NCBI GenBank assembly: GCA_050174575.1 | Contig: JBFXJT010000007.1 | Location: 6,648-70,647, forward strand | Direction of reading: 5' to 3' | DNA from: Bacilli bacterium | GTDB taxonomy: Bacteria > Bacillota_I > Bacilli_A > ML615J-28 > CAG-698 | DNA: 64,000 nt | Shown: positions 16,016 to 56,200 of the stretch, piece by piece | Numbering within the stretch: the stretch's first letter is position 1 | Layout of the letters: each line of letters begins with the position of its first letter | Position numbers and translations under genes: made by a program | Notes under the pieces: model-generated | Told to the model about the DNA's origin: nothing | Seen by the model: only the letters and a program-made list of their open reading frames with translations | Database searches by the model: none

Positions 16016-16016
16016 A

Positions 16017-17000: not shown

Positions 17001-17002
17001 AG

Positions 17003-18259
17003 TTAATGCTTTAATGCTCGTTCTCGTCTTTCTAAATGTTTGGGTTCGATTGCTCTTTGTTTGCCGGCAAGTAATCCACTAACACCTTCAGCTTCTTTAC
17101 TAGTACTGCAATTTGGATTTTCATGATAATCAGTTGGTTCATTGTAAGTGGTAATAACACCTTCATAATTTCTCAAAACAACTTTTCCCGGTGCTTGTGA
17201 AATTACATAGTTAGGCATAACGGGGATTTTACCTCCACCACCAGGAGCATCAACGACAAATGTCGGAACGCATAACCCACTAATGTGACCACGTAAACCT
17301 TCGATAATTTCAATACCTTTACTAATTGGTGTTCGGAAATGCTCAATACCAAGAGAAAGATCACATTGGTATAAATAGTATGGGCGAACACGCATTTGCA
17401 CTAAGCACGTGCATAATTTTCGCATTGTATCGACACAGTCATTAACGCCTCTTAAAAGAACACTTTGATTTCCCAAAGGAATTCCGGCATCAGCCATTTT
17501 CGCAATAGCCTTGGCACTTTCTTCAGTTATTTCATCATAATGGTTAAAATGAGTATTTACCCAAATAGGATGATATTTTTTTAACATTGAAACAAGTTCG
17601 TCCGTAATTCTTTGAGGCATAACAACGGGTGTCCTTGTGCCAATGCGGATAATTTCTACATGGTCAATTGCTCTTAAACGAGAAATGATTGATTCCAATT
17701 TCGCATCACTCATTAATAAAGCATCACCACCGGATAACAAGACATCTCGAACAGCAGGTGTTTTGCGAATATACTCAATTGCTTGTTCAATGCGATCACT
17801 TGGTAAATCATGGTCTGTTTGTCCTGCAAAACGTCTTCTTGTACAATGACGGCAATACATACTACACATATCCGTAATCAAAAACAAAACACGGTCAGGA
17901 TAACGATGTGTTAATCCAGGTACAGGTGAATCCTTATCTTCATCAAGCGGATCAACAAGATCGTTCTTGCCAATGATCATTTCATTAATGCTCGGGATAG
18001 CCTGTTTTCTAATTGGGCAATCAACGTTGTCTGGATCGATTAAACACAAAAAATAAGGTGTAATGGCCATCCGAAAACGTGATAGTACTTCAGTAATCTG
18101 TTGTTCTTCTTCGCTCGTTAAATTGATATATTTTTTAAGTTGCAAGACATCGGTAATCCGGTTTCGAACCTGCCAATGCCAGTCTTGCCAATCTGTTGAA
18201 GAGACATTAGGAAAATACTTTTGTTTTCTTTCTAAATATCTTTCATTTACTATTAACAT
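17003..18259 (-). CDS. kamA: L-lysine 2,3-aminomutase (radical SAM)
   Basis: 418 aa. Radical-SAM cluster motif CSMYCRHCTRRR (CxxxCxxC) with KamA-like flanks. Confidence 0.92.
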   Translation of the reverse strand: MLIVNERYLERKQKYFPNVSSTDWQDWHWQVRNRITDVLQLKKYINLTSEEEQQITEVLSRFRMAITPYFLCLIDPDNVDCPIRKQAIPSINEMIIGKNDLVDPLDEDKDSPVPGLTHRYPDRVLFLITDMCSMYCRHCTRRRFAGQTDHDLPSDRIEQAIEYIRKTPAVRDVLLSGGDALLMSDAKLESIISRLRAIDHVEIIRIGTRTPVVMPQRITDELVSMLKKYHPIWVNTHFNHYDEITEESAKAIAKMADAGIPLGNQSVLLRGVNDCVDTMRKLCTCLVQMRVRPYYLYQCDLSLGIEHFRTPISKGIEIIEGLRGHISGLCVPTFVVDAPGGGGKIPVMPNYVISQAPGKVVLRNYEGVITTYNEPTDYHENPNCSTSKEAEGVSGLLAGKQRAIEPKHLERRERALKH

Positions 18260-18262
18260 AAT

Positions 18263-19303
18263 TTACTCCTTCGGTTGATATCTTTTTACAAATAGATCAT
18301 AAAGCGGTTTTGATTCCCTTAAAAGGCTCAAGGTTAAATCGGCGTGTCCCGGAGTATAACCGTTACCGATAATCATGGTAGCTTCACTGGCAATGCCTTC
18401 AGCACCTAAAGCAGCTTTTGTGAAAGAAGTTGCCATACTGAAGAAATAAACAATACCGCTTGGTTTGGTTGCTAAAATCGATGTCATTTCTGTATTTGGA
18501 ACATTAACGACATTAATTGTGACATCAACTTGTTGATTATTATTGACTCGCATGATTTCTTGATAGACTGCCATCGGATCTCTAGCATCTGCTACAATGA
18601 TTTCGTCACAGACTCCGAGTGATTGCAAATCTTCAAGTTTATTGGTATTACTTATTAGCGCTATGATTTTGCCATTTGGACCGGCGTTCTTGTGAGCTTG
18701 ATAGCAGCATAATACACCACTTTTACCAGCTGCCCCTAGCACCAAAACAGTATTGTTAGGTTTAACCAATTTTTCAACTTGTGCAGGTGCACCAGCAACA
18801 TCTAAAGCAGATAATACTAAATGTTCACTTAAGTCATTGGGGATTTTCGCATAAATGCCCGTAGCAAATAAGATTGCTTCTGCTTCAACATCAACTTGAT
18901 CTTTATGCAAATGAATTTGTTTGATCGCTTTTATTTTTAATGGTGTTAGTGATAAAGAAACTAAAGTCACAATTTTATCACCAATTTTTAAATCGCATTT
19001 TAAGTCTTTTCCTATTTGTTTAATAACACCTAAAAGCATTCCCCCACTACCTGTTACAGGGTTTTGCATTTTTCCGCGTTTATTGACAATATCCATAATC
19101 ATCGTTTTCATGGCTTCCACATCACTATTAGTTGCTTGTTTAATTTGGGTAAAAGATGCGGAATCGATATTTAATGTTTTTACATCAATTAAAATTTCAT
19201 TGTCTTGGCAAATCATCGTATTATCTAATTGATCTGCAGCTTGAGGGAGAACACCTACCGGACTAATGACACGGTGAGTTCCATAAGGGCATGGCTTTTT
19301 CAT
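18263..19303 (-). CDS. kdd: L-erythro-3,5-diaminohexanoate dehydrogenase
   Basis: 346 aa NAD(P)-dependent dehydrogenase in the canonical position between kamA and kce. Rossmann GAAGKSG. Confidence 0.7.
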   Translation of the reverse strand: MKKPCPYGTHRVISPVGVLPQAADQLDNTMICQDNEILIDVKTLNIDSASFTQIKQATNSDVEAMKTMIMDIVNKRGKMQNPVTGSGGMLLGVIKQIGKDLKCDLKIGDKIVTLVSLSLTPLKIKAIKQIHLHKDQVDVEAEAILFATGIYAKIPNDLSEHLVLSALDVAGAPAQVEKLVKPNNTVLVLGAAGKSGVLCCYQAHKNAGPNGKIIALISNTNKLEDLQSLGVCDEIIVADARDPMAVYQEIMRVNNNQQVDVTINVVNVPNTEMTSILATKPSGIVYFFSMATSFTKAALGAEGIASEATMIIGNGYTPGHADLTLSLLRESKPLYDLFVKRYQPKE

Positions 19304-20127
19304 ATTTTCTTCTCCATTCTTAATATTTTTCTAGTTTCTTCGGGATTGGCAATTTCCCGATTGTATTTTTTTGCAATTTGAACGACTTTCGCTACTAAAG
19401 CGGCATTCGATGGAGCTAATACTCCTTTGTCAATGTAAATATTGTCTTCTAAACCAACGCGAACATGACCACCATGCATAATGGAAAGTTCTGCAAGGGA
19501 AAATTCAAAACGACCGATTCCGGCAACACTATATGTCGCATCATTTGGAATGCTGTCCTTTAAAAACAGAAAATCCCGTTCTTCTCCAGTCATTCCACCG
19601 TTAACTCCTAAAACAAAACTAAAATGGTAGGGTGGATTAATAAAGCCTTTTTTCGCAAGTCTTTGTATCATATCAATATGACCTTTTTCAAAGCATTCAA
19701 GTTCTTTATAAATATGACGACTTTCCAAAACATTGGCAAAATACTTAATATCGTTTTCTGTATTAACAAAAATATCATCACCACCAAAGTTTAATGTTCC
19801 ACAATCAAGCGTCGCCATTTCAGGATTTAGAGTAACCGGACCTAAACGCTCATCACGGCTCATGCCAACGGCTCCTCCAGTTGATACTTGAACGATGACA
19901 TCGGGACATTTAGCTTTGATTGCTGTAATGATTTCTTTAAAACGTTTGGCATCTTGCGTCGGCGTTCCATCATCAAAACGGGCATGCAAGTGAATGATTG
20001 ATGCTTTCGCCAAATAAGCCTGATAAGCACTTTCAGCCATCTCTGAAACAGTATAGGGAACATTGGGATTATGGTCTTTAGTAACTTCCGCACCAGAAAT
20101 AGCACAAGTAATGATTAATTTTTCCAT
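19300..20127 (-). CDS. kce: 3-keto-5-aminohexanoate cleavage enzyme (BKACE/DUF849)
   Basis: ~275 aa TIM-barrel DUF849-type protein. The likely start is the internal [14 protein letters not shown]. Sits between kal and kdd. Confidence 0.7.
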
Positions 20128-20507
20128 GTTTTCCTCTGAAGAGCTTTTGGTACAACACAAGTACCCTTTGCAGAAGCAACCAAAATTGGTTCATCTAAAA
20201 AATCAGCTGCTGAAGGAACAATATTTGGTTTAGCTTCGATTACTTTGTAACATGCAAAAGTCATTTTTCTTGAAGTGTTTCCCACTTCAACAATTTCACC
20301 ATGCACTTCCAAAAAGTCACCAGCATAAACCGGAGCCAAAAAATCTACTTGCTCGTAAGCCCGAAATAATCCTTCATCTCCATCATGGCGAATGAGCAAT
20401 TCTGTCGCAACATCGCCAAATAAAGCTAAGATTCGAGCTCCATCCACAAGATTTCCTCCATAATGGGCATCGCTTAAGGACATTCGTAAACGGATTATTG
20501 TTTTCAT
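20115..20507 (-). CDS. kal: 3-aminobutyryl-CoA ammonia-lyase
   Basis: 130 aa hot-dog-fold protein of the size characteristic of Kal, between the CoA-transferase genes and kce. Confidence 0.65.
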
Positions 20508-21151
20508 ATTGAAACTCCTTTCATTGGCAATACTTGATCAATAATTAAAGTTGCTTCAGTTACAGCGACAACTTCATCAATCGAATAATTAGGATGAACT
20601 TCTAATAGATGTAACCCATCGTCACGAACCTCCATAACGGCCATTTCTGTAACGATTAAGTTAGCTTGTTTATAAGCAGTAAGTGGTAAAACACAACGTT
20701 TTAATATTTTTGATTTTCCATTATTTGTATGTTGCATCGCAATAATAACCTTTTTAGCACCAACAACCAAATCCATGGCACCACCCATTCCCGGAACTTT
20801 CTTTCCTGGAATAATCCATGAAGCAAGGCTACCTTCTTCATCAACTTCAAGAGCACCTAGGACAGTGACATCAACATGACCACCACGAATAAACATAAAG
20901 GAAGTTGCAGAATCAATAAACGATCCTCCCGGCATAATCGTTGCTTTCATTCCTCCGGCATTAACGATATCACTTTGTTCTTCTGTTAATGGGCCAATAC
21001 CAATTATTCCATTTTCTGATTGTAAAATGACATGTTTGGTCGGAGGAATAAAATTTGCCACTAAAGTAGGAGTACCAATACCCAAATTGACAATATCGCC
21101 ATCTTTAAGTTCTAAAGCTATTCGACTAGCAATAATAAACTTTTCGTCCAT
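20504..21151 (-). CDS. atoA: CoA-transferase subunit B (acetoacetate:butyrate/acetate CoA-transferase)
   Basis: 215 aa 3-oxoacid CoA-transferase beta-subunit-like protein. Overlaps both neighbouring genes. Confidence 0.8.
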
Positions 21152-21798
21152 TATTCCACCTCCATAACGATGTAATCAACTAACGGAAAAGGTGTAATGA
21201 CTGCTTCAGGATCTATTTCTTCAAGTTTTTGCTGGCATACAGCAATCACTAATGATGCAGCTGTAGCCATGATTGGATTAAAATTACGCATTGTTTTGCG
21301 ATATGCAAGATTTCCATATCGATCGCAAATCGCTCCACCAATTAAAGCTAAGTCAGCAAATAACGGTTCTTCTAGCAAATAATCAATCCCTTGAACCTGG
21401 ATTACTCTTTTCCCTTCTTGAACAATTGTTTTTAGTCCAGTTGGGGTCAAAACACCACCTAGTCCCGCACCTGCAGCACGGATTTGTTCGACCAATGTCC
21501 CTTGAGGAACTAAAACAACTTCTAGTTTACCTTCTTGCATCAACTTCCCGACAGTTGGATTTGTTCCAATATGGGATGCAATCAATTTTTTAACCCGATT
21601 AGCAACAATCAATTTTCCAACTCCTCGGTCTTCAAATCCTCCGTCATTACAAATGATTGTAAAATCGGTAAAACTTGTTTCTAAAATTAAATCAATTAAG
21701 TAATCAGGACTTCCGTTTGCTAAAAAACCACCAACCATAATCGTCATGCCGGATTTAAGGTGACTTTTAAAATTTTCCTTACAAATAAAACCTCGCAT
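21151..21798 (-). CDS. atoD: CoA-transferase subunit A
   Basis: 215 aa 3-oxoacid CoA-transferase alpha-subunit-like protein (GGF..NGSP...). Confidence 0.8.
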
Positions 21799-21807
21799 AT
21801 TTCCTCC

Positions 21808-22224
21808 TTACTTAGGGGGCATAATAGTCGCTTCACCGACTATCACCACTTCGTTTTTGTCGTTTTTTGCAACGCAATCAAAAACAACACGATTTTTTTC
21901 CATAATGATTTCTTTTACAGTCACAAAAGCCGTTATTGTATCATTCAAATAAACTGGCTTAATAAACTTTAAACTTTGGAAAGTATAGATACTTCCTAAA
22001 CCAGGTAATTCAGTACCTAAGATGGCACTAAAAAGAGAGCCAACAAGCATACCATGAACTATCCTCGTTTTAAAAATCGTTGTTTTTGCATAATCTTCAT
22101 TTACATGAGCGGGGTTAAAGTCACCAGAAACTGAGGCAAAATTGTTAACATCAGTTTCTGTAAAACTCTTTGTTATTGAACTTGTTTGTCCAATAAACAA
22201 TTCGTTAATTGTCAATTTTTTCAA
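21808..22224 (-). CDS. MaoC-like (R)-specific enoyl-CoA hydratase / hot-dog protein, first gene of the lysine operon
   Basis: The MaoC dehydratase domain begins at KKLTINELFIGQ. The probable start is TTG (complement of 22222-22224), 8 nt after RBS AAAGGAG. The longer ATG-extended ORF would run through the terminator hairpin and riboswitch. Confidence 0.6.
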   Translation of the reverse strand: MKKLTINELFIGQTSSITKSFTETDVNNFASVSGDFNPAHVNEDYAKTTIFKTRIVHGMLVGSLFSAILGTELPGLGSIYTFQSLKFIKPVYLNDTITAFVTVKEIIMEKNRVVFDCVAKNDKNEVVIVGEATIMPPK

Positions 22225-22241
22225 GAAATAACTCCTTTCAT

Positions 22242-22273
22242 AAAAAAAGCTGTTGTCTTTTAAAGACAACAGC
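22242..22273 (-). terminator. Riboswitch expression-platform terminator
   Basis: GCUGUUGUCUU-uua-AAGACAACAGC followed by UUUUUUU, immediately upstream of the RBS of the first operon gene. Confidence 0.8.
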
Positions 22274-22435
22274 GCTCCATTTCCCAAATGGCAGTGGATA
22301 AGGCATTCCTTGTCCACCAAGACTTTAATGAATGAACTCATTAAATCTTTCGGCGATATTTCCCTTTATTTGTCACATTGGGAGTTCATTCCCTTAGCAT
22401 TGACAAATTACCCTAAATAACGCACCTCTGTGTAT
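22262..22435 (-). promoter_or_regulatory. Lysine riboswitch (L-box) aptamer in the 5' leader of the lysine-fermentation operon
   Basis: Leader begins ACAGAGGUGCG (L-box AGAGGUGCG) and contains AAAGGGAAAUAUCGCCGAAAG (L-box GGGGAGCGUCGCCGAAG), the UUUGUCA...UGACAAA helix, CCAUUUGGGAAAUGG and the 3' GGAGCGCUGU (L-box GGAG(G/C)GCUAUC). About 170 nt, matching the length and order of the B. subtilis lysC element. Confidence 0.75.
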
Positions 22436-22446
22436 TAACTAATACT

Positions 22447-22516: not shown

Positions 22517-24157
22517 TTAATCGTTTTGTTTGGTAAGATAGAAATATTTAGTATCCGCTTCAGCCATATGACCAACAATAAAATTATCTACTAAAAACGA
22601 TGCTAAAACGATACTTTTTATTTCACCATTTTGATATTTCTTTTTCATATCATTTGCTTTTAAAATAATGTCGCGATGCAGAGCACAATGTTCATCATAA
22701 TTAGGATAATCTAAATTATACATTACTTTTTCTTCAAAATAAAAATGTTGAGAAATGTGTTTGATGATTTTTTCAATTTGATTGATAATTTTTTCATAGG
22801 GAACATTTGTTTGAAACATAAAAATTAAGTTGTTTCCCAATTCAATAATCTCTCGATGTTGATTATCTATATCAACATTGCCACTACTCCATTCATTATG
22901 CCATTCAAAATACGGTGAAGTTGATAAAGATTCCATGGAGAGGCTCTCTGAAGAGCTTGCCACACGGTTACGTCCCTGTTCTTTTGCACAGTACATTGCA
23001 TCATCCGTACGTTTATACCAACTTCTTAATGACTCGTTAGGAATCATTTGGGCAACACCAAAACTTGCCGTTAATTTGGAAATAATGGGAAACCTGAAAC
23101 CTGCAACAGCAATTCGAATTTTATCAGCAACTTTTACAGCATCTTCCACTTTTGTATCTGGCAATACGATAACAAATTCTTCGCCTCCAAGACGAGACAA
23201 ATAGTCTGTTTTTCTAATTGATGATTTTAACAGTTGGGAAAAACTTACTAAAATATCATCACCAACAGGATGGCCCCAAGTATCATTTACAAATTTAAAA
23301 TGATCAATATCAGCAATAATCATTGATAAAGGCAAAGCTGTATTGTTGGCTTTTTCCATTGTTTCATTAGTAATTTTATGAAAGAAGTGACGATTGTAAA
23401 GTCCGGTAAGGTTATCAATTGTCATTTCAAATTCAAGACGGTTAGCTAATTCTACTGTTTTAGTGATATCGCGTGCAGACGCATAAATAAATCTTCCAAA
23501 TTGTTTTGCCCGCCACTCTAAAAAATGATATTGTCCATTTTTATCTTTATAACGATTAACAAAATTATTAATTTCTTCACCCTTAAGTAAATTTTTCATC
23601 ACTTCTCTTGTAGAAGAAATATCTTCCTCATGCATAAATTCAAAAAAAGTACGGGTTGTTAAATCAGCAAAGTTGGCTCCAACTAGGTTTTCAAAATAAT
23701 CATTTGTTTTAATAAAATGACCATCCATATCTGAGACCACTAAAAGGTCAAGGTTAACATCGATTAATCCTTTTAATAATTCCTCTTCTTTCATGGTTTT
23801 AGTGATATCTTCATAAAAGCAACCAAAGTGATGACAATCAATGGGAAAGATGGTTGCTTTAACCCATGAATGATTAATAGGTAAAAAGCAATTGCATGTT
23901 TTAACCTCTTTTTGATTTACTGCTTTCCTAAAGTTTTGATACCATTCATTGTTAAAATGATTATTAACATTTGCTGTTGATAAATAACTTTTTCCTATTA
24001 ATGCTTCTTTTGGAAGTGGAATAAACCGTTCAAACGCTTCGTTTACTCCGGAAAAATAGTAGTCAACAGGTTCTTGTTTTTCGTTAAAGATAATTTCATG
24101 AAAAGAACAAGGAATAGGAGATTCTTTAAAAAAGTCTAAAAAATTACAGTTATTCAT
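22517..24157 (-). CDS. Sensory diguanylate cyclase: PAS - GGDEF - C-terminal hemerythrin-like domain
   Basis: GGDEF core (RLGGEEF, active-site type) and an N-terminal PAS-like region. The C-terminal ~130 aa carry hemerythrin-type H/E/D ligands (HREIIELGN..., HCALHRDI..., GHMAEAD). It lies 11 nt downstream of speE. Confidence 0.75.
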   Translation of the reverse strand: MNNCNFLDFFKESPIPCSFHEIIFNEKQEPVDYYFSGVNEAFERFIPLPKEALIGKSYLSTANVNNHFNNEWYQNFRKAVNQKEVKTCNCFLPINHSWVKATIFPIDCHHFGCFYEDITKTMKEEELLKGLIDVNLDLLVVSDMDGHFIKTNDYFENLVGANFADLTTRTFFEFMHEEDISSTREVMKNLLKGEEINNFVNRYKDKNGQYHFLEWRAKQFGRFIYASARDITKTVELANRLEFEMTIDNLTGLYNRHFFHKITNETMEKANNTALPLSMIIADIDHFKFVNDTWGHPVGDDILVSFSQLLKSSIRKTDYLSRLGGEEFVIVLPDTKVEDAVKVADKIRIAVAGFRFPIISKLTASFGVAQMIPNESLRSWYKRTDDAMYCAKEQGRNRVASSSESLSMESLSTSPYFEWHNEWSSGNVDIDNQHREIIELGNNLIFMFQTNVPYEKIINQIEKIIKHISQHFYFEEKVMYNLDYPNYDEHCALHRDIILKANDMKKKYQNGEIKSIVLASFLVDNFIVGHMAEADTKYFYLTKQND

Positions 24158-31353: not shown

Positions 31354-34098
31354 TTATCCCATTTGATTAGTAATTGTTTGCCATGGAATATTGTGTGTTC
31401 GTTCGACAGTCCATTGATCGCTCGTATCTTTACTGTAAAGAGTTACGGTATCAAAGCCATTAGCAATATCTGGAGTAACTGCATAGTATGTTACAACTTC
31501 ATCAAAGAAGGCAACAGCCCAACCAGCTACTTCAATATCACAAAGTTCCAAATACAATTCCTGGCCTAAGTAAGCACTTAAATCAATAAAATATGTCCCC
31601 ATATCTGCCCATGATCCACCTAAATCTACACTTGGGAAATTGGTATCGCTAAAACGATTTTGTTTATATAAACCAATTTGTGTCCCGTCAGCTAAATAAA
31701 CTTTTACAGCTGCAGCATTAGCACCCATTTTTAAAGAAATAAAGCCTGTTCCGTGAAGAGTAAAATTGGTTGAGCGTAATGAATATTGCTCGCTTTCCGC
31801 AACACCTGAAGTCCATCCGTCAAAGTGATAATCACCGCTTTGGTTATATGGTAATTTTTCATTCCAATAATGTGTTTGACTTATAACAGCATTAACTGTA
31901 ACTTTTTCAGAAGTCCAACCAGTCATATCACCAGTTTCAAAACCTCCATTGATAATTAAACCATTATTGCCCATTTCCCATTCGATATTAACATCTGGTT
32001 CTTGGACACTGTCTTTTGTAGAACCAGCAACAGTATCAAAGCCATTTGCAACATCAGGAACAGTTGTATGATAGAAATTAATATCATCAAAGAAAGAAAC
32101 TGCCCAACCAGCTGTAGCTGGATCATCAATCAATTCAACATAAACTTTTTCGCCTAAATAAGCCGATAAGTCCGCAAAGTAACGTGTCATGGTCGCTAAA
32201 CGTCCACCATTAGCAAGGTATGGGAAATCAAAATCTTTGAAACGATAATTTGTGAAATAACCGATGACTGTTCCATCTTCTTTTACAACACGAACAGCGG
32301 CAGCTTTTCCACCCATCATGAAGGAAACCCAACCAGTACCAGATAATGTAAATAATCCAGAGCGTAAAGTATAACCAGCTGATTCCACGCTTGTTGCTGT
32401 CCAACCATCAAAATGGTAATTTCCTTGTTGGTTATAAGCAATCATTTCGCCCCAGAAAGTTTCTGCGCTTAAGGCACCATTAATTATATCGCCAAAAACA
32501 ACACTCCAACCAGTCATATCACCTGTTTCAAATCCACCGTTTGCGACATTGGTATCGGCAGAAACGACAACATTGAATGTGCTCGTAACTGTTTCGCTTT
32601 CATAAGTTGTCCCATAATGAACAACATATGTTCCTTCTTGATCAAAATCAAAAGCATCAAATCCTGTTGTAAACTCTGTTTCGCCTAAAACAACTTTTGT
32701 AATGACAGCTGGTACAGCCGTTTCGCCATAAGTTATCACGACATCAGCCATTAATGCTGTCAAGTTGTAATCATTTACCATCGCCGTTACAAAACCTTCT
32801 GCTTCAGTTTCAATCATTAAGGCAGGTAATTCAAATGGATAATCATAATTTGTATAGTATTCTTGTAAATGAGCTAGCGAATTATATGAATCGGTGTATG
32901 TTTCTGCCATAATTGCTTGGAAAGTAGATTTCATTAAAGCTTTTACTTCAACTTCCGTCATACTAACACGGAAATCATCAGCATTGATGAAAGCAAATCC
33001 GCTACTTGGATTGTTGTCCACAATCGAGATGTACAACACATCGCCAAGGTATTCGGATGCATCAACATAAACGCGACGTAATGTCAATGGTAATCCTGGA
33101 TCGTTAAATGTTGTATTAGTGACTTGGATTAATTCTGCATCTGTTGTTCCGTCATTAATAGAAATATAACAATTTGTTGGCCCAGAACCAATCATAAAGG
33201 AAATCCAACCATCACCGGCTAATGTGAATTTTGTAGAACGGATTGCTCCAACTGCTGATTCGGCAGTAGCTGCATTGTTATTTCCGTCTAAATAATAATC
33301 ACCTTCACCATAAACCATACGATCAGTCCAATAAAATTGTGATGTTGGAACGACAACTGTTCCACCAAATGCTGTACCGCTTAATTGTTTCCAACCAGTT
33401 AAATCACCTGTTTCAAACCCACCATTTGTAATCGTTGTTGATGTTGGGTCTTCTTCAAATTCTGGTTCTCCATAAGCTTCAATTTGGGCATCACGTTCTG
33501 CTTGCATAGCTGTAACTTCTGCTTCAGTCAAACAAACTACAAAATCATCTAAATTGACATAGCCATAATCATCGGTGTTATCACTGTCAGTTACTCTGAT
33601 ATAAATGATTTTATTCAAATGTGCTGATAAATCAACAACTCTTCTGATCATTTGATCAGTAATAAATGGTTCATCATAATCAGTATTCGTTATTTTTAAC
33701 AAAGCCGTGGCATTGTCTTTTTCAAAGAACTCAACAAAAATCTTATCTTGATTTTTTGCAGCTCCCATTTTAAAAGCAATTTTACCAGTTCCAGTTAATT
33801 TAAAGAAAGAAGATGTTAGTGTACCAACCATTTGTTGAGTACCACCATCCGTTCCACTGAACCAAAATTCTCCTGTTTTATCTACAGTAATTCCATTTAC
33901 TTTTAGATCATTAACGATACCGCGAGGACTAAAAGCCGTTTCTGTTTTTGTCCATCCCGTCCAAACTTCTGCTGTTCCAACTTCAAATCCACCGTTTGTA
34001 ATTTGGGTTGGATACTCTTCTTCTTTACCACATGCTGCTAACAATAATAAAGAGAGTGCTAGCATAAATACAAAGGTAAAACGCCATGTTTTTTTCAT
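31354..34098 (-). CDS. Surface lipoprotein made of four tandem CBM-like (ConA-like/CBM66-like) beta-sandwich modules; putative fructan-binding protein
   Basis: Lipobox LLLAAC. Four ~190-230-aa repeats each open with NGGFE.G...GW (ITNGGFEVGTAEVW, ITNGGFETGDLTGW, VANGGFETGDMTGW, IINGGFETGDMTGW) and end with ...Y..(V/I)(N/D)DF. The N-terminal module of the adjacent GH32 enzyme is homologous. Confidence 0.6.
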   Translation of the reverse strand: MKKTWRFTFVFMLALSLLLLAACGKEEEYPTQITNGGFEVGTAEVWTGWTKTETAFSPRGIVNDLKVNGITVDKTGEFWFSGTDGGTQQMVGTLTSSFFKLTGTGKIAFKMGAAKNQDKIFVEFFEKDNATALLKITNTDYDEPFITDQMIRRVVDLSAHLNKIIYIRVTDSDNTDDYGYVNLDDFVVCLTEAEVTAMQAERDAQIEAYGEPEFEEDPTSTTITNGGFETGDLTGWKQLSGTAFGGTVVVPTSQFYWTDRMVYGEGDYYLDGNNNAATAESAVGAIRSTKFTLAGDGWISFMIGSGPTNCYISINDGTTDAELIQVTNTTFNDPGLPLTLRRVYVDASEYLGDVLYISIVDNNPSSGFAFINADDFRVSMTEVEVKALMKSTFQAIMAETYTDSYNSLAHLQEYYTNYDYPFELPALMIETEAEGFVTAMVNDYNLTALMADVVITYGETAVPAVITKVVLGETEFTTGFDAFDFDQEGTYVVHYGTTYESETVTSTFNVVVSADTNVANGGFETGDMTGWSVVFGDIINGALSAETFWGEMIAYNQQGNYHFDGWTATSVESAGYTLRSGLFTLSGTGWVSFMMGGKAAAVRVVKEDGTVIGYFTNYRFKDFDFPYLANGGRLATMTRYFADLSAYLGEKVYVELIDDPATAGWAVSFFDDINFYHTTVPDVANGFDTVAGSTKDSVQEPDVNIEWEMGNNGLIINGGFETGDMTGWTSEKVTVNAVISQTHYWNEKLPYNQSGDYHFDGWTSGVAESEQYSLRSTNFTLHGTGFISLKMGANAAAVKVYLADGTQIGLYKQNRFSDTNFPSVDLGGSWADMGTYFIDLSAYLGQELYLELCDIEVAGWAVAFFDEVVTYYAVTPDIANGFDTVTLYSKDTSDQWTVERTHNIPWQTITNQMG

Positions 34099-49664: not shown

Positions 49665-49756
49665 AAATCCTCCTCTAAATTAAGTTAATTAAGTATACTA
49701 AAGATTGATTATAATTGCAAACTTATAAGAAAAAATGCCTATTTAAAGGCATTTAA

Positions 49757-50452
49757 TTAAATCGGACGATTTGTTAGGTCTAAGTTAATTCGTCCATCTT
49801 TTATTTCAATAATACGGTCGGCTTTTTCAGCAATCTTTCGGTCATGAGTAATAATGATAAAAGTAGTTCGGTATTTTTGGTTGATTTGGCGAAGTAGATC
49901 ATACACCTGCTCCGTCGTATCACTGTCAAGATTCCCTGTAGGCTCATCCGCTAAAATAATTTTGGGATTGTTAATTAAGCTTCTAGCAATGGCAACACGT
50001 TGTTGTTGACCACCACTAATGTTGGTTGCTAAGCTGTTTTTAACTTTATTTAACCCAACAAAATCAAGAAGTTCATTTGCACGATCAATAATTTCATCAC
50101 TAATCGGTTTTTTGGAAATGCGGAAAGGCATTAAAACATTTTCTAGCACAGTAAATTCCGGAAGCAAATAATGAAACTGAAAAATAAAACCAATGTCTTC
50201 ATTCCGTAATGTTGATAATTCCGGATTTTTCATTGTTTTTGTATTCTTCCCATTAATAATAATATCGCCATCGGTCGGACGGTCTAAAGTCCCTAAAATA
50301 TTTAATAAGGTCGACTTACCACTACCTGACTGCCCGATGATGGAATTAAATGACCCTTCTTCAAAAGCTAAATCAATTCCAAAAAGCACTTGTGTTTTTA
50401 TCTTTGAGCCATAAAATTTAGTTATGTTTTTTAGTTCCATAATCTTAGCCAT
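49757..50452 (-). CDS. ABC transporter ATP-binding protein (MacB/LolD-type)
   Basis: Walker A GQSGSGKST, ABC signature LSGGQQQRVAIARSL, Walker B ILADEPTGNLD. Confidence 0.9.
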   Translation of the reverse strand: MAKIMELKNITKFYGSKIKTQVLFGIDLAFEEGSFNSIIGQSGSGKSTLLNILGTLDRPTDGDIIINGKNTKTMKNPELSTLRNEDIGFIFQFHYLLPEFTVLENVLMPFRISKKPISDEIIDRANELLDFVGLNKVKNSLATNISGGQQQRVAIARSLINNPKIILADEPTGNLDSDTTEQVYDLLRQINQKYRTTFIIITHDRKIAEKADRIIEIKDGRINLDLTNRPI

Positions 50453-51614
50453 TGCGAATCACCTCAATAACACTTAATTTTGACGATTTTCGAGCAGGAA
50501 TGATGGATGCTCCAAGAGCTGCTAAAACAGCGATTGCGGCGGAAACAGCGATAAACTGTCCATCAATATATAGCGGAACAACTGGCGTACCATCTGGTTT
50601 TAAAGCAAAAGTTACAAAAGAATACGATAAACCAAGTCCTAGCATAACCCCAAATATCGCTCCAAGAAGTCCTAAAATTAGCCCTTCAAACAAGAAAATG
50701 AAACTAGCATCACCATTTTGGATACCCATAGCTTTTAAAATGCCAATTTGTTTCGACTTTTGTAAAACGATGATTGCTAAAACACTGGCAATTCCTAGGA
50801 CGACGGAAATCATAACAAATACTTGAATCATCGTGCTAGAAATACTTTGTCCTTGCAATCCGCTCAATAACTCCTGATTGTTATCAATCCAATTAGTTAA
50901 TTTTAAATTGTCGGGAACACTTGGGGCAATTGCTTCTGCAATACTAACGGCATCAAAAATTCTGTCATCATCTATTTGCATTTCAATGGCATTGACTTGA
51001 TTGGGAACATTAAGCAATGTTTGCACCATGGTTAATGAAGTCATTCCCCAACCGGCATTAACTGCCGCAACTCCAAAATCAAAGAAGCCCACTACTTTAA
51101 CGTTTTGGCTGTCCACCTGAGGAATATCAACCATAATTTGCTCTTCTAAAGAGATGTTTAATAACCCTTTAAGGTCTTTCCCTAAAATAATTTCATCATC
51201 GCTTGATGGCATTCTTCCTTCAATCAGCTTTTCATTAAAACGATATATCGTATTAGGAAGAAGATAATTATTACTACTGTCAAAACCTCTTAATAATAAA
51301 GGAGCTGTATTTGTTCCGTTGATGGCAAATCCATTAATGCTAAGAGCTGGAGACACGGCTTTAATGCCATCAGCATTTTCAATATCAGCAATAATTTGAT
51401 CATATTGAGTAATATATTCCGTTACTGGTGCCGAAATGGTGATTTGGGATGAATTACCAATGGTCTTATCAACTAAACTTTTTTGTAATCCTGAAATCAA
51501 AGATCCAATAAAGACTTGAACGGAAACACCAACGGCAATACCCAGAATAATAAACAAGGTTTGTAGCTTACCGGATTTCAAAAAGCGAACTGCGATACTA
51601 AATGCTAACTTCAT
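50445..51614 (-). CDS. ABC transporter permease, FtsX/MacB-like (4 TM + large extracytoplasmic domain)
   Basis: 389 aa: N-terminal TM, ~230-aa extracytoplasmic domain, then three C-terminal TM segments. Translationally coupled to the ATPase gene. Confidence 0.8.
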   Translation of the reverse strand: MKLAFSIAVRFLKSGKLQTLFIILGIAVGVSVQVFIGSLISGLQKSLVDKTIGNSSQITISAPVTEYITQYDQIIADIENADGIKAVSPALSINGFAINGTNTAPLLLRGFDSSNNYLLPNTIYRFNEKLIEGRMPSSDDEIILGKDLKGLLNISLEEQIMVDIPQVDSQNVKVVGFFDFGVAAVNAGWGMTSLTMVQTLLNVPNQVNAIEMQIDDDRIFDAVSIAEAIAPSVPDNLKLTNWIDNNQELLSGLQGQSISSTMIQVFVMISVVLGIASVLAIIVLQKSKQIGILKAMGIQNGDASFIFLFEGLILGLLGAIFGVMLGLGLSYSFVTFALKPDGTPVVPLYIDGQFIAVSAAIAVLAALGASIIPARKSSKLSVIEVIRNG

Positions 51615-52255
51615 TTGACATCTCCTTTCGCAAGTTCAAAAACACTGCTCGGAGATGATAAATAAAAATCGTGATCAACTTGCTCTAAAGCATCCTTTTG
51701 GGAAAAAGCTTGGCCCCCAACAATGATTTTCACATTAGGAAATTGTTCCCTTATGGTCTTGGTGATTTGTTTTGTGACAACTAAATTGTAATAATTGGTA
51801 ACACTTATAGCTACATAATCAGGTTGAAAAACACTTACCGCCGAAATAACGTCATGTTTTGGGGTGTTCGCACCAATATATTGGCTTTGATAACCCGCTA
51901 ATGCAAAGTAATTGGCTGCCATAATGGCTCCGATTTCATGAAATTCTTCCGATGGTGTGAAAACAACAATTTTCTTGTTGATTGCTGGTCGCTCTTGTTT
52001 TCTTTGAATAATTTGAGAATAAGTGGCTTCTAAAATAGTGCGAATAATCGATGTTCTTGTGTGCTCTTTCCAAATACACACTTTTTGGTCCGGTTCTTGG
52101 CAATGGAAGTTCCATAGCGTTGGTCCTAGAATGTTTTCATAAAGTTGCTCAATAGTAACTTTTTGATCATTCAGTAAACTAAGAACAAACATTAATGCTT
52201 GATCTTTGTCTTCTTTGTCTAAGAATGCGAGTAGTTGTTCGTAATACTGATTCAT
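51611..52255 (-). CDS. Stand-alone cobalamin (B12)-binding domain protein (B12-binding_2 cap + Rossmann B12-binding)
   Basis: 214 aa: an N-terminal ~90-aa helical domain, then KIVVFTPSEEFHEIGA...IIVGGQA, a DxHxxG-type corrinoid-binding Rossmann fold. No HTH or catalytic domain. Confidence 0.65.
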   Translation of the reverse strand: MNQYYEQLLAFLDKEDKDQALMFVLSLLNDQKVTIEQLYENILGPTLWNFHCQEPDQKVCIWKEHTRTSIIRTILEATYSQIIQRKQERPAINKKIVVFTPSEEFHEIGAIMAANYFALAGYQSQYIGANTPKHDVISAVSVFQPDYVAISVTNYYNLVVTKQITKTIREQFPNVKIIVGGQAFSQKDALEQVDHDFYLSSPSSVFELAKGDVK

Positions 52256-52270
52256 TTTTCCTCCTCTAAA

Positions 52271-53521
52271 TTAAAATGCGAAAAAGTATGATTGTAATAA
52301 ATAGTCAATATTTTCTTCAAGTGCCAAATTAAATAAATAGTTTTTGAAGGCATTTAATGATAAAGAGCCTTCTCTAAACCTTTCTAGACGCTTTTGAAAA
52401 ACAATTTTTTCATGTTCTCGGTGTTTGAAGTATCCCCAAATATGCATAATGGCATTTTCTTCATGACCTCTTTTTGGTTCTTGATTGATTGCAAAATCAA
52501 CTAAGCGATAAAAATTAAGAGGCAGGGGGTTTTGTTTATCTTTTAATAATTGACGAATTTGCAGGTAAAGTTTAGGAGACATTTCAAGCACTTTATATTT
52601 GTATTTTTCCCAAGATTTTTCTAAATCTCTCATTTTGAGATGATCGTTTAAACAATGAGTAATTTTTATTGCGGAAATATTTTTGTCTTTCACTTCTAAC
52701 ATTACATCTAAATCGTCCCGTTTGAGTTCTTTAAACCAAGCTATAAAAGTATCTGGGTTGATAATAAATGAGTGCGACCCTGCTTTTTTAATAGGATCTT
52801 GTTCAGAATAATGGATTTTTTGATTGCCATCTTGTGATTTCCATGTATATTTGCATAAGTTAATCCATTCTTGATCAGTTAAGTATTTTTTGGGTGGATT
52901 TAAAAAGTGATGAAGATTATCAAAAACAACGGGGATATTAATTTGTTCACTTATTTCTAAAACATCTTCGATATTATAACTTTTGTCATCATTTTCAATA
53001 ATCAGTCTTTGTTTTACAGACTGTGGAAGTAATAGAAAATTTTGTACAAATCGTTTTTTTGCTTCTTCTTTATTTCCGTATATTCCTCCAATGTGCAAAA
53101 CAATTTTTGAAGAACTGGCGGTTCCCAAACTGCTCAAAATTCTTTCATGATAGATTAAATCATCAAAAGCGCGATTAACCACTTCTTGACTTGGCGAATT
53201 TATCACCGTATATTGCCCTGGATGACAGGAAACGCGGATGTTGTGATTACGGATCTTTTCGCCGATTCGATTAAAATCATCTTTAAAAAGATCCCACCAT
53301 AAGAGAGAGTTGACACTGTTCGACCCAAAAGGGATTAAATCTGAACTAATCCGAAACAAATGAAGGTCATTTTTAATGTTATAGTCAATGATATTTTCGA
53401 ATGATGTCAAATTGTATTTAATTAATGTTATTAAGTTTTCTTTATTGGCATTGTTGATTCTACAAGTATGATAATCTGTATGTAAAACACCCAATGCTAA
53501 GCAAGCATATCCAATATTCAT
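52271..53521 (-). CDS. uvsE: UV-damage endonuclease (UvsE/UVDE) with ~100-aa C-terminal extension
   Basis: MNIGYACLALG... start and UVDE TIM-barrel sequence through HIGGIYG...IENDD. The start is placed at the internal Met that begins the conserved domain. Confidence 0.75.
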   Translation of the reverse strand: MNIGYACLALGVLHTDYHTCRINNANKENLITLIKYNLTSFENIIDYNIKNDLHLFRISSDLIPFGSNSVNSLLWWDLFKDDFNRIGEKIRNHNIRVSCHPGQYTVINSPSQEVVNRAFDDLIYHERILSSLGTASSSKIVLHIGGIYGNKEEAKKRFVQNFLLLPQSVKQRLIIENDDKSYNIEDVLEISEQINIPVVFDNLHHFLNPPKKYLTDQEWINLCKYTWKSQDGNQKIHYSEQDPIKKAGSHSFIINPDTFIAWFKELKRDDLDVMLEVKDKNISAIKITHCLNDHLKMRDLEKSWEKYKYKVLEMSPKLYLQIRQLLKDKQNPLPLNFYRLVDFAINQEPKRGHEENAIMHIWGYFKHREHEKIVFQKRLERFREGSLSLNAFKNYLFNLALEENIDYLLQSYFFAF

Positions 53522-53625
53522 ATTTTTAAAAATAAAACACCCATTTTTCAATAGATGTTTATTCCTTCCATTATTCAATTATAACATTTTTATAAAAAAG
53601 CACAAGTTTAATGCAAAATGTTCTT

Positions 53626-55355: not shown

Positions 55356-55730
55356 CTACTTATTGTAATGGTTATTTTCTTCATCAACCCGGTACTTAAC
55401 AATGGATTTGATTAATTCATGAGGAAGAGGTTCATTTAAAGGAAATTGAATGGAACCTTTCCCAAAATGGTATCTTTTTAACTCTTCTTTAAAATGCTCA
55501 ATCCCACTACTTCCAGGATAAAACCCAATATGATGAGGAAAAGCTGCAAAATGAACGAGGTTGTGATGCAAAAATAGTGTTGGCATCTGATAGCTGATTT
55601 TTTCATAAGCTTCTTGAGCATTTTCATGGATGATTCTTCTTAATTCTTGTAACTTTGTTTGAACTTCTTGAGGAAATTTTTCAATGTATTGATCGACTAA
55701 AAAACTATATTTTGGATGATTGGAAATCAT
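55356..55730 (-). CDS. DUF1801 (YdhG-like) domain protein
   Basis: 124 aa with the DUF1801 layout. A terminator hairpin (AAGUAGGGAAacuagcUUCCCUACUU + U-tract) overlaps its stop at 55335-55360. Confidence 0.6.
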   Translation of the reverse strand: MISNHPKYSFLVDQYIEKFPQEVQTKLQELRRIIHENAQEAYEKISYQMPTLFLHHNLVHFAAFPHHIGFYPGSSGIEHFKEELKRYHFGKGSIQFPLNEPLPHELIKSIVKYRVDEENNHYNK

Positions 55731-56200
55731 AATAATTTTATTATATGGCTTTCCATTTTTTCAGGAGTATCTGTCGGTGCAAATCTTTTCACAACTTCAC
55801 CTTGGCGGTTAATAAGGAATTTTGTGAAATTCCATTTGATGCTTTCGCCAAAAAAGCCTTTTTTCTCTTTCTTTAAGAAACTATATAGCGGTGCTTCATT
55901 GGGACCGTTGACCTCAATTTTCGCAAACAATGGAAAAGTTGTGTGATATTTCAAAGTACAAAACTCATGGATTTCTTCGATTGTCCCTGGTGCTTGATTT
56001 CCAAATTGGTTACAAGGAAAATCTAAAATTTCCAACCCTTGAATTTGATATTTCTGATATAATTTTTCCAATCCTTCATATTGTGGAGTAAATCCACATC
56101 CAGTTGCTGTATTAACGATTAATAATACGTGATTTTGATACTTCGATAAACTAATTTCATTTCCCGAAGAATCTTTAACTTTTAAATCATATATTGTCAT
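55727..56200 (-). CDS. Glutathione peroxidase
   Basis: 157 aa with LIVNTATGCGFTPQYEGLEKLY, the GPx active-site region. Confidence 0.9.
   Translation of the reverse strand: MTIYDLKVKDSSGNEISLSKYQNHVLLIVNTATGCGFTPQYEGLEKLYQKYQIQGLEILDFPCNQFGNQAPGTIEEIHEFCTLKYHTTFPLFAKIEVNGPNEAPLYSFLKKEKKGFFGESIKWNFTKFLINRQGEVVKRFAPTDTPEKMESHIIKLL

Follow-up and report, generated by a model that had tools for sequence, protein, structure and literature searches.

The photoreceptors CarH/LitR and CtMerR (5C8D, 8JBS) join a helical cap and Rossmann cobalamin module to a MerR DNA-binding domain, and E141 and H142 of CarH are key adenosylcobalamin contacts (PMC11796333). In photocobilins (8J2W, 8J2Y) and photoglobin-B12 proteins, one polypeptide combines a B12 domain, with canonical Wx9EH motif, and additional chromophore or output domains, and the B12 domain is the input module for non-transcriptional outputs such as GGDEF. 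AerR is a stand-alone B12 domain acting as an antirepressor; AerR/PpaA are found with photosynthesis gene clusters in Proteobacteria, and the partner of AerR is CrtJ/PpsR. Among ABC systems, LolDF and LolCDE consist of a separate ATPase and a four-TM permease with a MacB-type outer domain. BceAB-BceS (a type VII transporter with a sensor), MetNI and ModBC may serve as models for coupling a transporter to a ligand sensor; to our knowledge sensing in these systems falls to a histidine kinase or to fused C-terminal domains, and a cobalamin protein has this role in none of them. The literature searched yielded no description of a B12 domain paired with, or controlling, a transporter, and a cobalamin-dependent transporter subunit, as proposed below, would if true be a new combination of known parts.

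Gene layout and the transporter

The window, the 64,000-nt stretch of DNA analyzed here, carries four consecutive ORFs on its minus strand: a uvsE-DUF1722 fusion (52271..53551), a 214-aa B12-binding protein (51611..52255, ribosome-binding site AGAGGAGG upstream), a 389-aa type VII (MacB-fold) ABC permease (50445..51614) and a 231-aa LolD-like ABC ATPase (49757..50452). The spacings from first to fourth gene are 15, -4 and -8 nt, as the first-pass annotation had reported and as the ORF coordinates confirm; 4 nt are shared between the end of the B12 gene and the start of the permease gene, and 8 nt between the permease and ATPase genes. A candidate promoter, read directly from the sequence, lies on the minus strand (53578..53605) between an M28 peptidase gene and uvsE, with a -35 of TTGTGC (53605..53600), a 16-nt spacer and an extended -10 of TGtTATAAT (53586..53578), although this exact pair is absent from the output of a simple consensus scan. 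On the 3' side, a terminator-like hairpin with a T-run (49733..49754, minus strand) begins 2 nt past the ATPase stop codon, and beyond it lies an amidohydrolase gene with its own promoter-like site and ribosome-binding site. The hairpin therefore closes a single promoter-to-terminator unit of four genes, bearing out the co-transcription suggested earlier. We conclude that the region is a single operon, with the B12 protein, permease and ATPase as its conserved core.

The transporter genes were correctly called MacB-type: the permease matches FtsX (6e-15) and MacB_PCD (9e-10) and the ATPase matches ABC_tran (4e-32), all above Pfam cut-offs. Four hydrophobic segments are found in the permease (14-44, 257-288, 301-338 and 345-375), the first two flanking an extracytoplasmic domain of ~210 aa, and the ATPase translation shows Walker A (GQSGSGKST), signature (LSGGQQQR) and Walker B (ILADEP) motifs. 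The best solved relative of the permease is LolF (E 9e-28, full length), and the best PDB match of the ATPase is LolD (5.5e-64); the window transporter has the architecture described above for LolDF and LolCDE. Permease and ATPase nevertheless fall below the NCBIfam Lol cut-offs (LolC/E, 119 bits vs 362; LolD, 271 bits vs 307.75). As there is a single permease gene, the permease probably acts as a homodimer. Unlike Lol systems, the transporter is found in single-membrane hosts with no outer membrane or LolA for delivery, and the Lol pathway is reported absent in monoderm Terrabacteria (PMC11784454).

Relatives of the B12-binding protein

The 214-aa protein is cytoplasmic, with no hydrophobic or transmembrane segment. 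It matches Pfam B12-binding (7.5e-17, above cut-off) and carries no other Pfam domain, DNA-binding domains included, so the earlier description as a stand-alone B12 domain stands; of the two families proposed for its classification, the other, B12-binding_2, was undetected at E<=0.01. An AF2 model (pLDDT 93.8) predicts a helical cap and a Rossmann fold. The window protein carries E104-x-H106-x-x-G109, S151 and G180-G181, and the residues invariant in the alignment are C52, C60, W62, E64-H65, E104xH106ExxG109, G128ANTP132, S151 and G180G181, with E64-H65 invariant across the family.

By both sequence and fold, the nearest solved relatives are CtMerR (8JBS; 3e-11, residues 34-207), photocobilins (8e-8, residues 8-182, spanning cap and Rossmann fold) and CarH, in agreement with the earlier view of a sensor-type domain, and photoreceptor B12 domains alone give a significant alignment to the helical cap. 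Shared with CarH/LitR and CtMerR are the helical cap and Rossmann module, the ExHxxG histidine lower ligand, the EH pair of the cap helix and GxxxP. Of the four published elements of the light-sensor signature, however, two are absent, the Trp of GxxW (Wx9EH) and the Gly of GxxH; in their place is a family-specific motif, C-x7-C-I-W-x-EH-x-RTSIIRT. Judging from these missing residues, the upper ligand may be other than adenosyl. The window protein also lacks the MerR DNA-binding domain, scores 35.8 against the CarH NCBIfam cut-off of 400, and has a transporter rather than an operator as its genomic partner. In contrast to the photocobilins, the membrane complex that is its putative output consists of other polypeptides.

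The fold search did not tell photoreceptor domains and methyl-transfer corrinoid proteins apart: MtmC (3EZX) matches with a TM of 0.78 and E of 1e-9. A role as an MtaC/MtbC/MtgC-like methyl-transfer protein also has in its favor the JGI annotation ("methanogenic corrinoid protein MtbC1"), MtgC as best NCBIfam match (E 5e-10) and an MTTB-family gene upstream in one metagenome locus (L138). However, methyltransferase and MetH proteins align over the Rossmann half only, and the NCBIfam scores of 22-39 bits are far under the cut-offs of 215-450. Methyltransferase genes are nearly absent from the neighborhood (none of 80 genome loci and one of 35 metagenome upstream contexts; one of ~50 different contexts). 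The methyl-transfer role is thus close to refuted and very improbable, and the earlier separation of this protein from the MtaC type holds.

Conservation of the three-gene cassette and its possible function

The trio of B12 protein, permease and ATPase genes is present, among 160 related loci (80 genome and 80 metagenome loci), in every one that has enough sequence, so the link between B12 protein and exporter noted in the first-pass annotation is very strongly conserved. Among genome loci, the permease is next in 79 of the 79 having downstream sequence and the ATPase follows in 74; the metagenome loci, whose B12 proteins are 34-50% identical to the query of that set (P0316), carry the trio in every case with enough downstream sequence. 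Seven distant members were spot-checked: the full trio is recorded in three (an Anaerolineaceae-cluster contig, Clostridium grantii and a Saccharofermentanales MAG), a permease orthologue lies directly downstream in two, and the remaining two are uninformative. The full trio occurs on one further contig too. The taxa comprise Acholeplasmatales, Izemoplasmatales, Clostridia and Anaerolineae; many hosts are wall-less and anaerobic, and some trio members originate from anaerobic digesters.

The tight spacing is not due to chance, because the overlaps recur in related genomes (-4 nt between B12 and permease genes in 61/71 loci; -8 nt between permease and ATPase genes in 56/68). Such conserved start/stop overlaps are typical for subunits produced in a fixed ratio. 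The three genes are co-inherited across phyla: between the window and the Anaerolineaceae-cluster contig, identity is 34% for the B12 protein, 53% for the permease and 64% for the ATPase, against just 31% (58 aa) and 39% for an unrelated FtsX/ABC pair of an Acholeplasma genome. The cassette is self-contained, as shown by its ~50 different upstream neighbors, the promoter-like site of its own in most loci inspected and a terminator between the trio and recA. Transporter pairing is specific to this B12 subfamily, since a stand-alone protein with canonical Wx9EH (P0345) does not adjoin a transporter. Searches found no fusion of the B12 protein and transporter genes (longer proteins look like frameshifts or extensions) and did not locate where, among permease orthologues, the B12 gene drops out.

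Given the observed gene order, domains, conservation, coupling and co-inheritance, we tentatively propose, at slightly less than an even chance, that the B12 protein is a cobalamin-dependent sensor or regulatory subunit of the type VII transporter. The steps that we infer run from cobalamin binding and its form, through contact with the transporter, to the direction of control and the signal. In the holo form, the cofactor would probably be adenosylcobalamin, bound base-off and His106-on, with its upper ligand beneath E64-H65, and the protein would dock on the ATPase/permease from the cytoplasmic side and set ATPase activity. Any change to the upper ligand of the cobalt would alter conformation or oligomeric state, on the model of CarH-type domains, and so switch the transporter. 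Candidate triggers are photolysis, redox chemistry with the frequent Cys pair, and lack of the cofactor; light is only one candidate signal because most host lineages are anaerobic, which weakens it as a general one. If LolCDE, MacB and HrtBA are a guide, the transporter would work on a target at the cell surface or in the outer leaflet and would not carry a solute across the membrane. Control by the B12 protein is likely post-translational, since it has no DNA-binding domain and a search of the window and 10 further loci revealed no cobalamin riboswitch. D-lysine 5,6-aminomutase genes (KamDE) in the same window indicate that the host uses adenosylcobalamin.

The protein resembles AerR/PpaA in being a stand-alone B12 domain of ~200 aa that would act through protein-protein contact, and since domains such as AerR act on separate partners, it might be a free antirepressor or sensor whose DNA-binding or signaling partner is encoded elsewhere, the exporter being unrelated though co-transcribed. 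A MarR-family gene lies directly upstream of the trio in two metagenome loci, and in Peloplasma a canonical B12 protein and GGDEF pair lies 1.5 kb from it. Universal adjacency, fixed order and 4-nt overlaps across phyla are, however, hard to explain without a shared function of B12 protein and transporter, and the genome and metagenome neighborhoods hold no conserved regulator gene, CrtJ/PpsR-type partner or photosynthesis cluster. We consider a free antirepressor improbable.

Corrinoid handling would instead have the transporter take up, salvage, release or expel cobalamin or a cobalamin-carrying surface protein, with the cytoplasmic B12 protein as acceptor or donor, or, in a variant recalling MetNI or ModBC, as an adenosylcobalamin-loaded feedback subunit inhibiting its own uptake system. 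This is unlikely, if worth serious thought: the host requires adenosylcobalamin (KamDE), small-genome lineages carrying the trio are unlikely to make it, and a CobW-like gene lies upstream at one locus. A BtuE-like glutathione peroxidase gene immediately precedes the trio in 7-8 metagenome loci from two clades, and in the window one lies 2 kb upstream; this recalls E. coli btuCED, where BtuE is encoded within the B12 importer operon. E. coli BtuE is a peroxidase (PMC3018469). BtuCD, however, is a type II importer with a BtuF binding protein and no cytoplasmic B12-binding subunit; beside the trio there is no conserved substrate-binding lipoprotein gene. Bacillota B12 uptake genes usually lie behind cobalamin riboswitches, of which none was found in the window and the 10 further loci, and a capped His-on domain with invariant EH is the design of a tightly held cofactor, not of a cargo binder. 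We know of no characterized MacB-fold transporter, MacB and LolCDE included, with a transmembrane substrate path, and without one a cytoplasmic protein could not pass on a water-soluble corrinoid.

The link to UV repair

The four-gene arrangement reported for the window is not conserved. Of the 80 genome loci, 3 carry uvsE-DUF1722 immediately before the trio and 3 others carry DUF1722 alone. The uvsE-DUF1722 gene takes this place in none of the 80 metagenome loci, and it recurs there in one distant Clostridia locus; ~150 of ~160 loci have neither neighbor. Either arrangement is limited to the clade of the window and that one unrelated Clostridia locus. In the synteny comparison set beforehand, the B12-transporter part of the first-pass proposal thus persists, whereas the "welding" to UV repair largely fails. 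The UV-repair gene is a local addition, and under the sensor-subunit proposal its placement at the 5' end in this lineage would co-express UV-lesion repair.

A light- or UV-defense operon, in which a B12 photoreceptor, UvsE-DUF1722 and the exporter jointly counter photodamage, for example by DNA repair and expulsion of photosensitizers or photo-oxidized lipids, is distinctly unlikely. It would account for uvsE-DUF1722 in two seemingly independent lineages, the window clade and the Saccharofermentanales locus, whose B12 protein is 35% identical to that of the window and equidistant from all others and whose operon ends with an HhH-GPD DNA glycosylase gene; by rough estimate ~0.03 such cases are expected by chance in ~56 contexts. 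Three loci without UvsE retain a stand-alone DUF1722 gene 2-19 nt ahead of the trio, 4 metagenome loci have photolyase genes at a distance of 2.6-4.3 kb from it, and other Acholeplasma contigs have an operon that combines GSHPx and UvsE-DUF1722 with a different FtsX/ABC pair. DUF1722 proteins are typical of light-responsive operons with photolyase and B12-dependent LitR (PMC11417400). Against this, besides the rarity of the arrangement, these genomes are very densely populated with FtsX/ABC pairs (3 pairs in 11 kb of L081), and in the 24-30 loci with recA next to the trio, the cassette has inserted into the housekeeping pgsA-recA-rny-ymdB block and is separated from recA by a terminator. A search for a LexA box found none, the hosts are mostly anaerobes, and the adenosyl-contacting Trp of proven photoreceptors is missing.

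The uvsE-DUF1722 product matches UvdE (5e-65, aa 33-278) and DUF1722 (7e-16, aa 327-434), both above Pfam cut-offs, and scores 202.8 bits against the NCBIfam UvsE (TIGR00629) cut-off of 124.45; the C-terminal DUF1722 had gone unmentioned in the earlier reading. The mechanical ORF (53578..52271) starts at TTG 53578, which coincides with the final base of the -10 box (TGnTATAAT, 53586..53578), and the real start is therefore TTG 53551 or ATG 53521. The former is likely, being preceded by GGAAGGA and agreeing with the NCBI call of 426 aa. UvsE-DUF1722 fusions of ~417 aa are common in Clostridium and Acholeplasma.

The window operon and its three-gene core

The sequence confirms four minus-strand ORFs at window positions 49757-53578, and the first-pass annotation gave their spacings correctly (15 nt, -4 nt and -8 nt). 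They encode a UvsE-type UV-damage endonuclease (UvsE-DUF1722, 52271-53551), a 214-aa B12 protein (52255-51611) whose sole Pfam match is B12-binding (7.5e-17, residues 95-195), a 389-aa permease with Pfam FtsX and MacB_PCD matches (51614-50445), and a 231-aa ABC ATPase (50452-49757). The endonuclease matches Pfam UvdE (5e-65) and, at its C-terminus, the previously overlooked DUF1722 (7e-16), and it scores 202.8 bits against the NCBIfam UvsE equivalog TIGR00629 (cut-off 124.45). The gap after the M28 peptidase gene contains a promoter-like site with an extended -10 element (TGtTATAAT, 53586-53578) and TTGTGC 16 nt upstream. Because this -10 element overlaps the TTG start of the mechanically called ORF, uvsE most likely starts at TTG 53551, which sits behind GGAAGGA and equals NCBI's 426-aa call. 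A terminator-like hairpin with a T-run (49754-49733) follows the ATPase stop codon, and the gene beyond it is served by a separate promoter-like site and ribosome-binding site. Bounded by the promoter-like site before uvsE and the hairpin after the ATPase gene, the four genes plausibly make one transcription unit.

SOS control of the trio (B12 protein, permease and ATPase genes) was dropped as a candidate, since the 220 nt upstream contain no LexA box (GAAC-N4-GTTC), either in the window or in any locus scanned. No cobalamin riboswitch was detected at the Rfam gathering threshold in the window and 10 loci, which places the trio in these sequences outside the riboswitch-controlled B12 transport operons. 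A shared operator was also discarded, as only -35/-10-like elements recur upstream of the trio among loci.

A pattern scan of 185,579 species genomes returned 169 loci encoding relatives of the B12 protein; 80 of these were fetched and their neighbours examined. The permease gene follows the B12 gene in every genome locus with downstream sequence, and the ATPase gene comes next wherever the contig continues. In the neighbour census the trio genes alone are universal (79, 74 and 69 of 80, the remainder being contig ends), and the gene overlaps are kept as well, 61 of 71 loci sharing the -4 nt and 56 of 68 the -8 nt spacing. An HMM search of 1.8 billion representative proteins gave 121 clusters (50% identity) at E<=1e-30, nearly all of them stand-alone proteins of 205-225 aa with an I/V-W-x-E-H motif; proteins with the canonical Wx9EH motif, often carrying extra domains, appear only at lower HMM scores. 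Seven distant members were spot-checked for the trio. It is complete in an Anaerolineaceae/Chloroflexota-named cluster, Clostridium grantii, a Saccharofermentanales MAG and a further contig (L086); two more contigs have the permease orthologue directly 3' of the B12 gene and then end, and one stops at the B12 gene. P0345, a stand-alone protein with canonical Wx9EH, is without the trio. Identity between the window and the Anaerolineaceae-cluster contig is 34% for the B12 protein, 53% for the permease and 64% for the ATPase, compared with 31% (over 58 aa) and 39% when an unrelated FtsX/ABC pair of an Acholeplasma contig is taken.

In 80 metagenome loci, collected as a second set around the distant members, the trio is present wherever sequence suffices, with 35 different upstream contexts in 56 loci. 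We conclude that the trio is a self-contained, co-inherited three-gene cassette, and the tie of the B12 protein to an exporter proposed in the first-pass annotation is borne out by synteny in genome and metagenome loci alike. Relatives of the B12 protein occur in at least 169 species genomes and the cassette in two phyla, with Paracholeplasma vituli, Peloplasma aerotolerans, Clostridium grantii and Proteiniclasticum among the cultured carriers. Candidate Rosetta-stone fusions of the B12 protein with FtsX/ABC components were rejected, the longer family members being N-terminal extensions or frameshift products. Current annotations of the trio are generic or misleading ("B12-binding domain protein", "MtbC1", "lipoprotein-releasing permease").

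Classification of the B12 protein and the transporter

Alignment of 30 relatives showed E104-x-H106-E-x-G109, G128-A-N-T-P132, S151 and G180-G181 to be invariant, a residue set that matches the classical base-off/His-on cobalamin motifs; at the His-ligand motif the window protein reads E104-F-H106-E-I-G109. A family-specific cap motif is also invariant in this alignment (C52-x7-C60-I-W62-x-E64-H65-x-R-T-S-I-I-R-T), and its Cys pair (C-x6-7-C) is frequent, not universal, across the wider family. The AlphaFold2 model (pLDDT 93.8) has four or five N-terminal helices, which form a helical cap over the first 90 aa, followed by a Rossmann domain, and the protein contains no hydrophobic segment. It thus has the helical-bundle cap, the Rossmann domain and the His within E/DxHxxG of CarH/LitR proteins, and lacks their MerR-type N-terminal DNA-binding domain. 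The first-pass view of a stand-alone protein without a DNA-binding domain agrees with this, B12-binding being its only Pfam match.

The best PDB matches of the B12 protein are photoreceptor B12 domains. By sequence it matches CtMerR (8JBS; 2.5e-8 as a single sequence and 3e-11 as a profile, with cap and Rossmann domain covered) and photocobilin (8J2W; 8e-8, residues 8-182); with methionine synthase and the methyl-transfer corrinoid proteins the alignment is confined to the Rossmann half. Foldseek ranks CtMerR, photocobilin and CarH (8JBS, 8J2W, 8C73) at the top with E about 1e-10, and MtmC and MttC follow so closely that fold alone is not discriminating. The light-sensor signature consists of GxxW, EH, GxxH and GxxxP (SignatureFinder, PMC11796333), and W131, E141, H142 and H177 of CarH are proven adenosylcobalamin contacts (PMC11796333). 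Two of these four elements are present, EH at 64-65 and GxxxP at 128-132. GxxW aligns to H51-C-Q-E54 and GxxH to E103-E-F-H106, so that the His is kept and the Trp and Gly are replaced. E64-H65 is invariant and the W131 equivalent, E54, is variable in the family; canonical Wx9EH occurs only in relatives scoring below about 135 bits.

Scores against all NCBIfam corrinoid-protein and CarH models are 10-fold under the cut-offs (35.8 bits versus 400 for the CarH equivalog NF052513, at best 39.2 versus 370 for MtaC/MtbC/MttC/MtgC, and 30.8 versus 215 for TIGR02370). These scores and the partial light-sensor signature place the protein outside both CarH/LitR and the MtaC type, and on sequence grounds it is a divergent stand-alone relative of photoreceptor-type B12 domains. 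Its sensor-like character, as first annotated, is upheld by its nearest PDB relatives. AerR/PpaA-type proteins offer another precedent; neither a CrtJ/PpsR partner nor a photosynthesis cluster was found in 160 loci or the window. A methyltransferase neighbour was seen in a single one of about 50 upstream contexts, the metagenome locus L138 (133-2100), where a methyltransferase gene of the MTTB superfamily precedes the B12 gene by 129 nt.

The permease scores 55.8 bits for FtsX (cut-off 25.5) and 39.6 bits for MacB_PCD (cut-off 27), as expected of type VII ABC transporters, and contains four hydrophobic segments, the first two being separated by an extracytoplasmic stretch of about 210 residues. 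In the ATPase, the translation shows intact Walker A, Walker B and signature motifs. Acinetobacter LolF is the best solved relative of the permease (9e-28, full length), followed by LolE, LolC, YtrF and MacB, and the ATPase is closest to LolD (5.5e-64). Both score below the LolCDE/LolDF equivalogs (TIGR02212, 118.9 versus 362.45; TIGR02211, 271 versus 307.75). The transporter is a type VII ABC machine in which the one permease probably forms a homodimer with two ATPases. The lineages that carry it, Acholeplasmatales, Izemoplasmatales, Clostridia and Anaerolineae, are single-membrane bacteria, and the Lol pathway has been reported absent from monoderm Terrabacteria (PMC11784454).

Upstream neighbours and a possible DNA-damage theme

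The gene upstream of the trio varies among the 80 genome loci, with recA in 24-30, a divergent Asp/Asn-tRNA ligase gene in 19, and many others. uvsE-DUF1722 is directly upstream in L001, L002 and L010 only, and a stand-alone DUF1722 gene, without UvsE, in L004, L005 and L012; all six loci belong to the window clade, their B12 proteins sharing 57-71% identity with that of the window. Neither UvsE nor DUF1722 was found upstream in the 80 metagenome loci. Counting the UV-repair gene as part of the module, as the first-pass annotation did, was therefore an overstatement (3 of 80 genome loci).

The same linkage recurs in a Saccharofermentanales MAG (L095, 2659-8116), where genes for a tocopherol-cyclase-like protein, UvdE/DUF1722, the B12 protein, permease and ATPase are followed after 15 nt by an HhH-GPD DNA glycosylase gene. 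The B12 protein of this locus is 30-40% identical to every other member, the window's included, and its UvsE is 50% identical to the window's, no closer than Clostridium UvsE (55%). Since neither protein is nearer to the window's, the linkage looks to have arisen independently of that in the window clade, and the UV-repair link, while rare, is probably not pure chance. In the s4U desulfidase RudS, DUF1722 is the domain that binds tRNA. Proteins with this domain are typical of light-responsive operons with photolyase and B12-dependent LitR (PMC11417400). UvsE-DUF1722 fusions (about 417 aa) are widespread in Clostridium, Alkaliphilus, Acholeplasma and others, in many gene contexts, and are labelled simply UvsE in annotation (window 52271-53551, L081-L085, L095). 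In the Acholeplasma-type contigs L081 (2679-6254), L082 (2761-6254) and L083, overlapping genes for glutathione peroxidase, an FtsX permease, an ABC ATPase and UvsE-DUF1722 form an operon whose permease (356-359 aa) belongs to a subfamily unrelated to the trio's. This operon is a second, independent co-operonic tie of UvsE-DUF1722 to a type VII ABC transporter. Against the UV link count the very high density of FtsX/ABC pairs in these genomes and the many contexts in which the UvsE-DUF1722 fusion is found.

In L027, L031, L036 and about 25 other Acholeplasmataceae loci, the trio lies between recA and rny in a gene block that is conserved apart from this insertion, comEC-holA-exonuclease-pgsA-recA-...-rny-ymdB. 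We rejected recA as a second DNA-repair link, as recA is followed by an intrinsic terminator, the B12 gene is preceded by a TATAAT promoter of its own, and the arrangement pgsA-recA-[trio]-rny-ymdB points to one insertion event into a housekeeping block.

Other damage-related neighbours are scattered. BtuE-type glutathione peroxidase genes are upstream of the trio in 7-8 loci of two clades (L096-L099, L103, L134, L135), and the window has one at 55727-56200, 2 kb upstream. MsrAB is a neighbour in two loci of one clade and SRAP in six loci, and four metagenome loci of two clades (L113, L147, L130, L142) have a DNA photolyase gene 2.6-4.3 kb downstream on the opposite strand. More than 90% of loci have no damage-related neighbour. 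General enrichment for damage genes was considered and rejected, the contexts counted being UvsE/DUF1722 (two clades), glutathione peroxidase (two), MsrAB (one) and recA (one); about 6 in about 56 contexts is suggestive but weak. We treat the UV link as a lineage-specific recruitment, not as a defining part of the system, with hints of a photo-oxidative or oxidative theme.

Possible roles of the cassette and host physiology

The cassette couples a capped, His-on type cobalamin domain without an output domain, by overlapping frames, to a permease and an ATPase, and its genes are co-inherited across phyla. Of the light- or cobalamin-responsive module in the first-pass annotation, the sensor-like B12 protein and the exporter link stand, and the UV-repair component falls away. 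The reading we favour is that the B12 protein would serve as a cobalamin-dependent sensor or regulatory subunit of the transporter, with light, redox state (through the Cys pair) or cofactor supply as the signal it may perceive.

The main rival reading is corrinoid handling, possibly feedback on an uptake or release system, and the host's need for B12 gives it some support. The window encodes an adenosylcobalamin-dependent D-lysine 5,6-aminomutase (KamDE) within a complete minus-strand lysine-fermentation operon (13732-22438), from which we conclude that the host is an anaerobic fermenter needing adenosylcobalamin. Among the operon's genes are those for a MaoC-like dehydratase, two CoA-transferase subunits, a thioesterase, BKACE/Kce and a Kdd-like dehydrogenase, together with KamA (lysine 2,3-aminomutase), a 301-aa ORF without Pfam match, and KamD/KamE. 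Some support also comes from glutathione peroxidase beside the trio, an echo of E. coli btuCED (PMC3018469). BtuE-type peroxidase genes lie directly upstream of the trio in two clades, which recalls the position of btuE inside that B12 importer operon.

Several features argue for the sensor-subunit reading. The cap is of photoreceptor type with invariant EH adenosyl contacts, and the B12 protein has diverged more quickly than its partners, a frequent trait of accessory subunits. To our knowledge, none of the type VII transporters characterised to date offers a transmembrane route by which a cytoplasmic protein could exchange a corrinoid. The lack of a riboswitch in the loci searched and of a DNA-binding domain points to post-translational control. 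Light is unlikely to be the sole signal, since many carriers live in anaerobic, partly dark habitats. We tentatively suggest, as a possibility we hold with some doubt, that the B12 protein is a cobalamin sensor (of light, adenosylcobalamin level or redox) directly gating the ABC machine by protein-protein contact, on a cassette dispersed across at least two phyla in single-membrane anaerobes. In a bolder variant, the cassette would control corrinoid release or capture at the cell surface. The gating idea is directly testable because several trio carriers are cultured.

The known outputs of B12 sensor domains are transcription factors and, as recognised more recently, enzymes, diguanylate cyclases among them. 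The trio's parts are of known kinds; the pairing of a CarH-like B12 domain with a LolDF-like ABC transporter is new to the literature searched, which contained no description of a B12 sensor domain paired with a transporter. If the B12 protein gates the transporter, it would represent a new output class for cobalamin sensors, the first with a transporter output, and would offer both a way into what LolDF-like machines do in bacteria that lack an outer membrane and a possible green-light or B12-controlled switch for membrane transport. The surface-corrinoid variant, if true, would bear on B12 exchange in anaerobic communities.

Conventional B12 sensors also appear in trio lineages. In Peloplasma aerotolerans (L046, 9992-12042, minus strand), a gene for a 362-aa canonical Wx9EH B12 protein lies 1.5 kb downstream of the trio and overlaps a GGDEF diguanylate cyclase gene, likely forming a conventional B12 photoreceptor pair, which suggests that such lineages hold both kinds. 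In the window, a lysine riboswitch (22262-22438, 81 bits) precedes the lysine-fermentation operon, and its position before a catabolic operon implies ON-type or otherwise unusual logic. Just upstream of it, a minus-strand gene (22517-24157) encodes a PAS-GGDEF protein with a C-terminal hemerythrin domain, possibly an O2- or iron-sensing diguanylate cyclase. A 914-aa minus-strand ORF (31354-34098), without a Pfam match at E<=1e-5, clusters with three GH32 fructan hydrolases, a sugar ABC system, a LacI regulator and a PfkB kinase.
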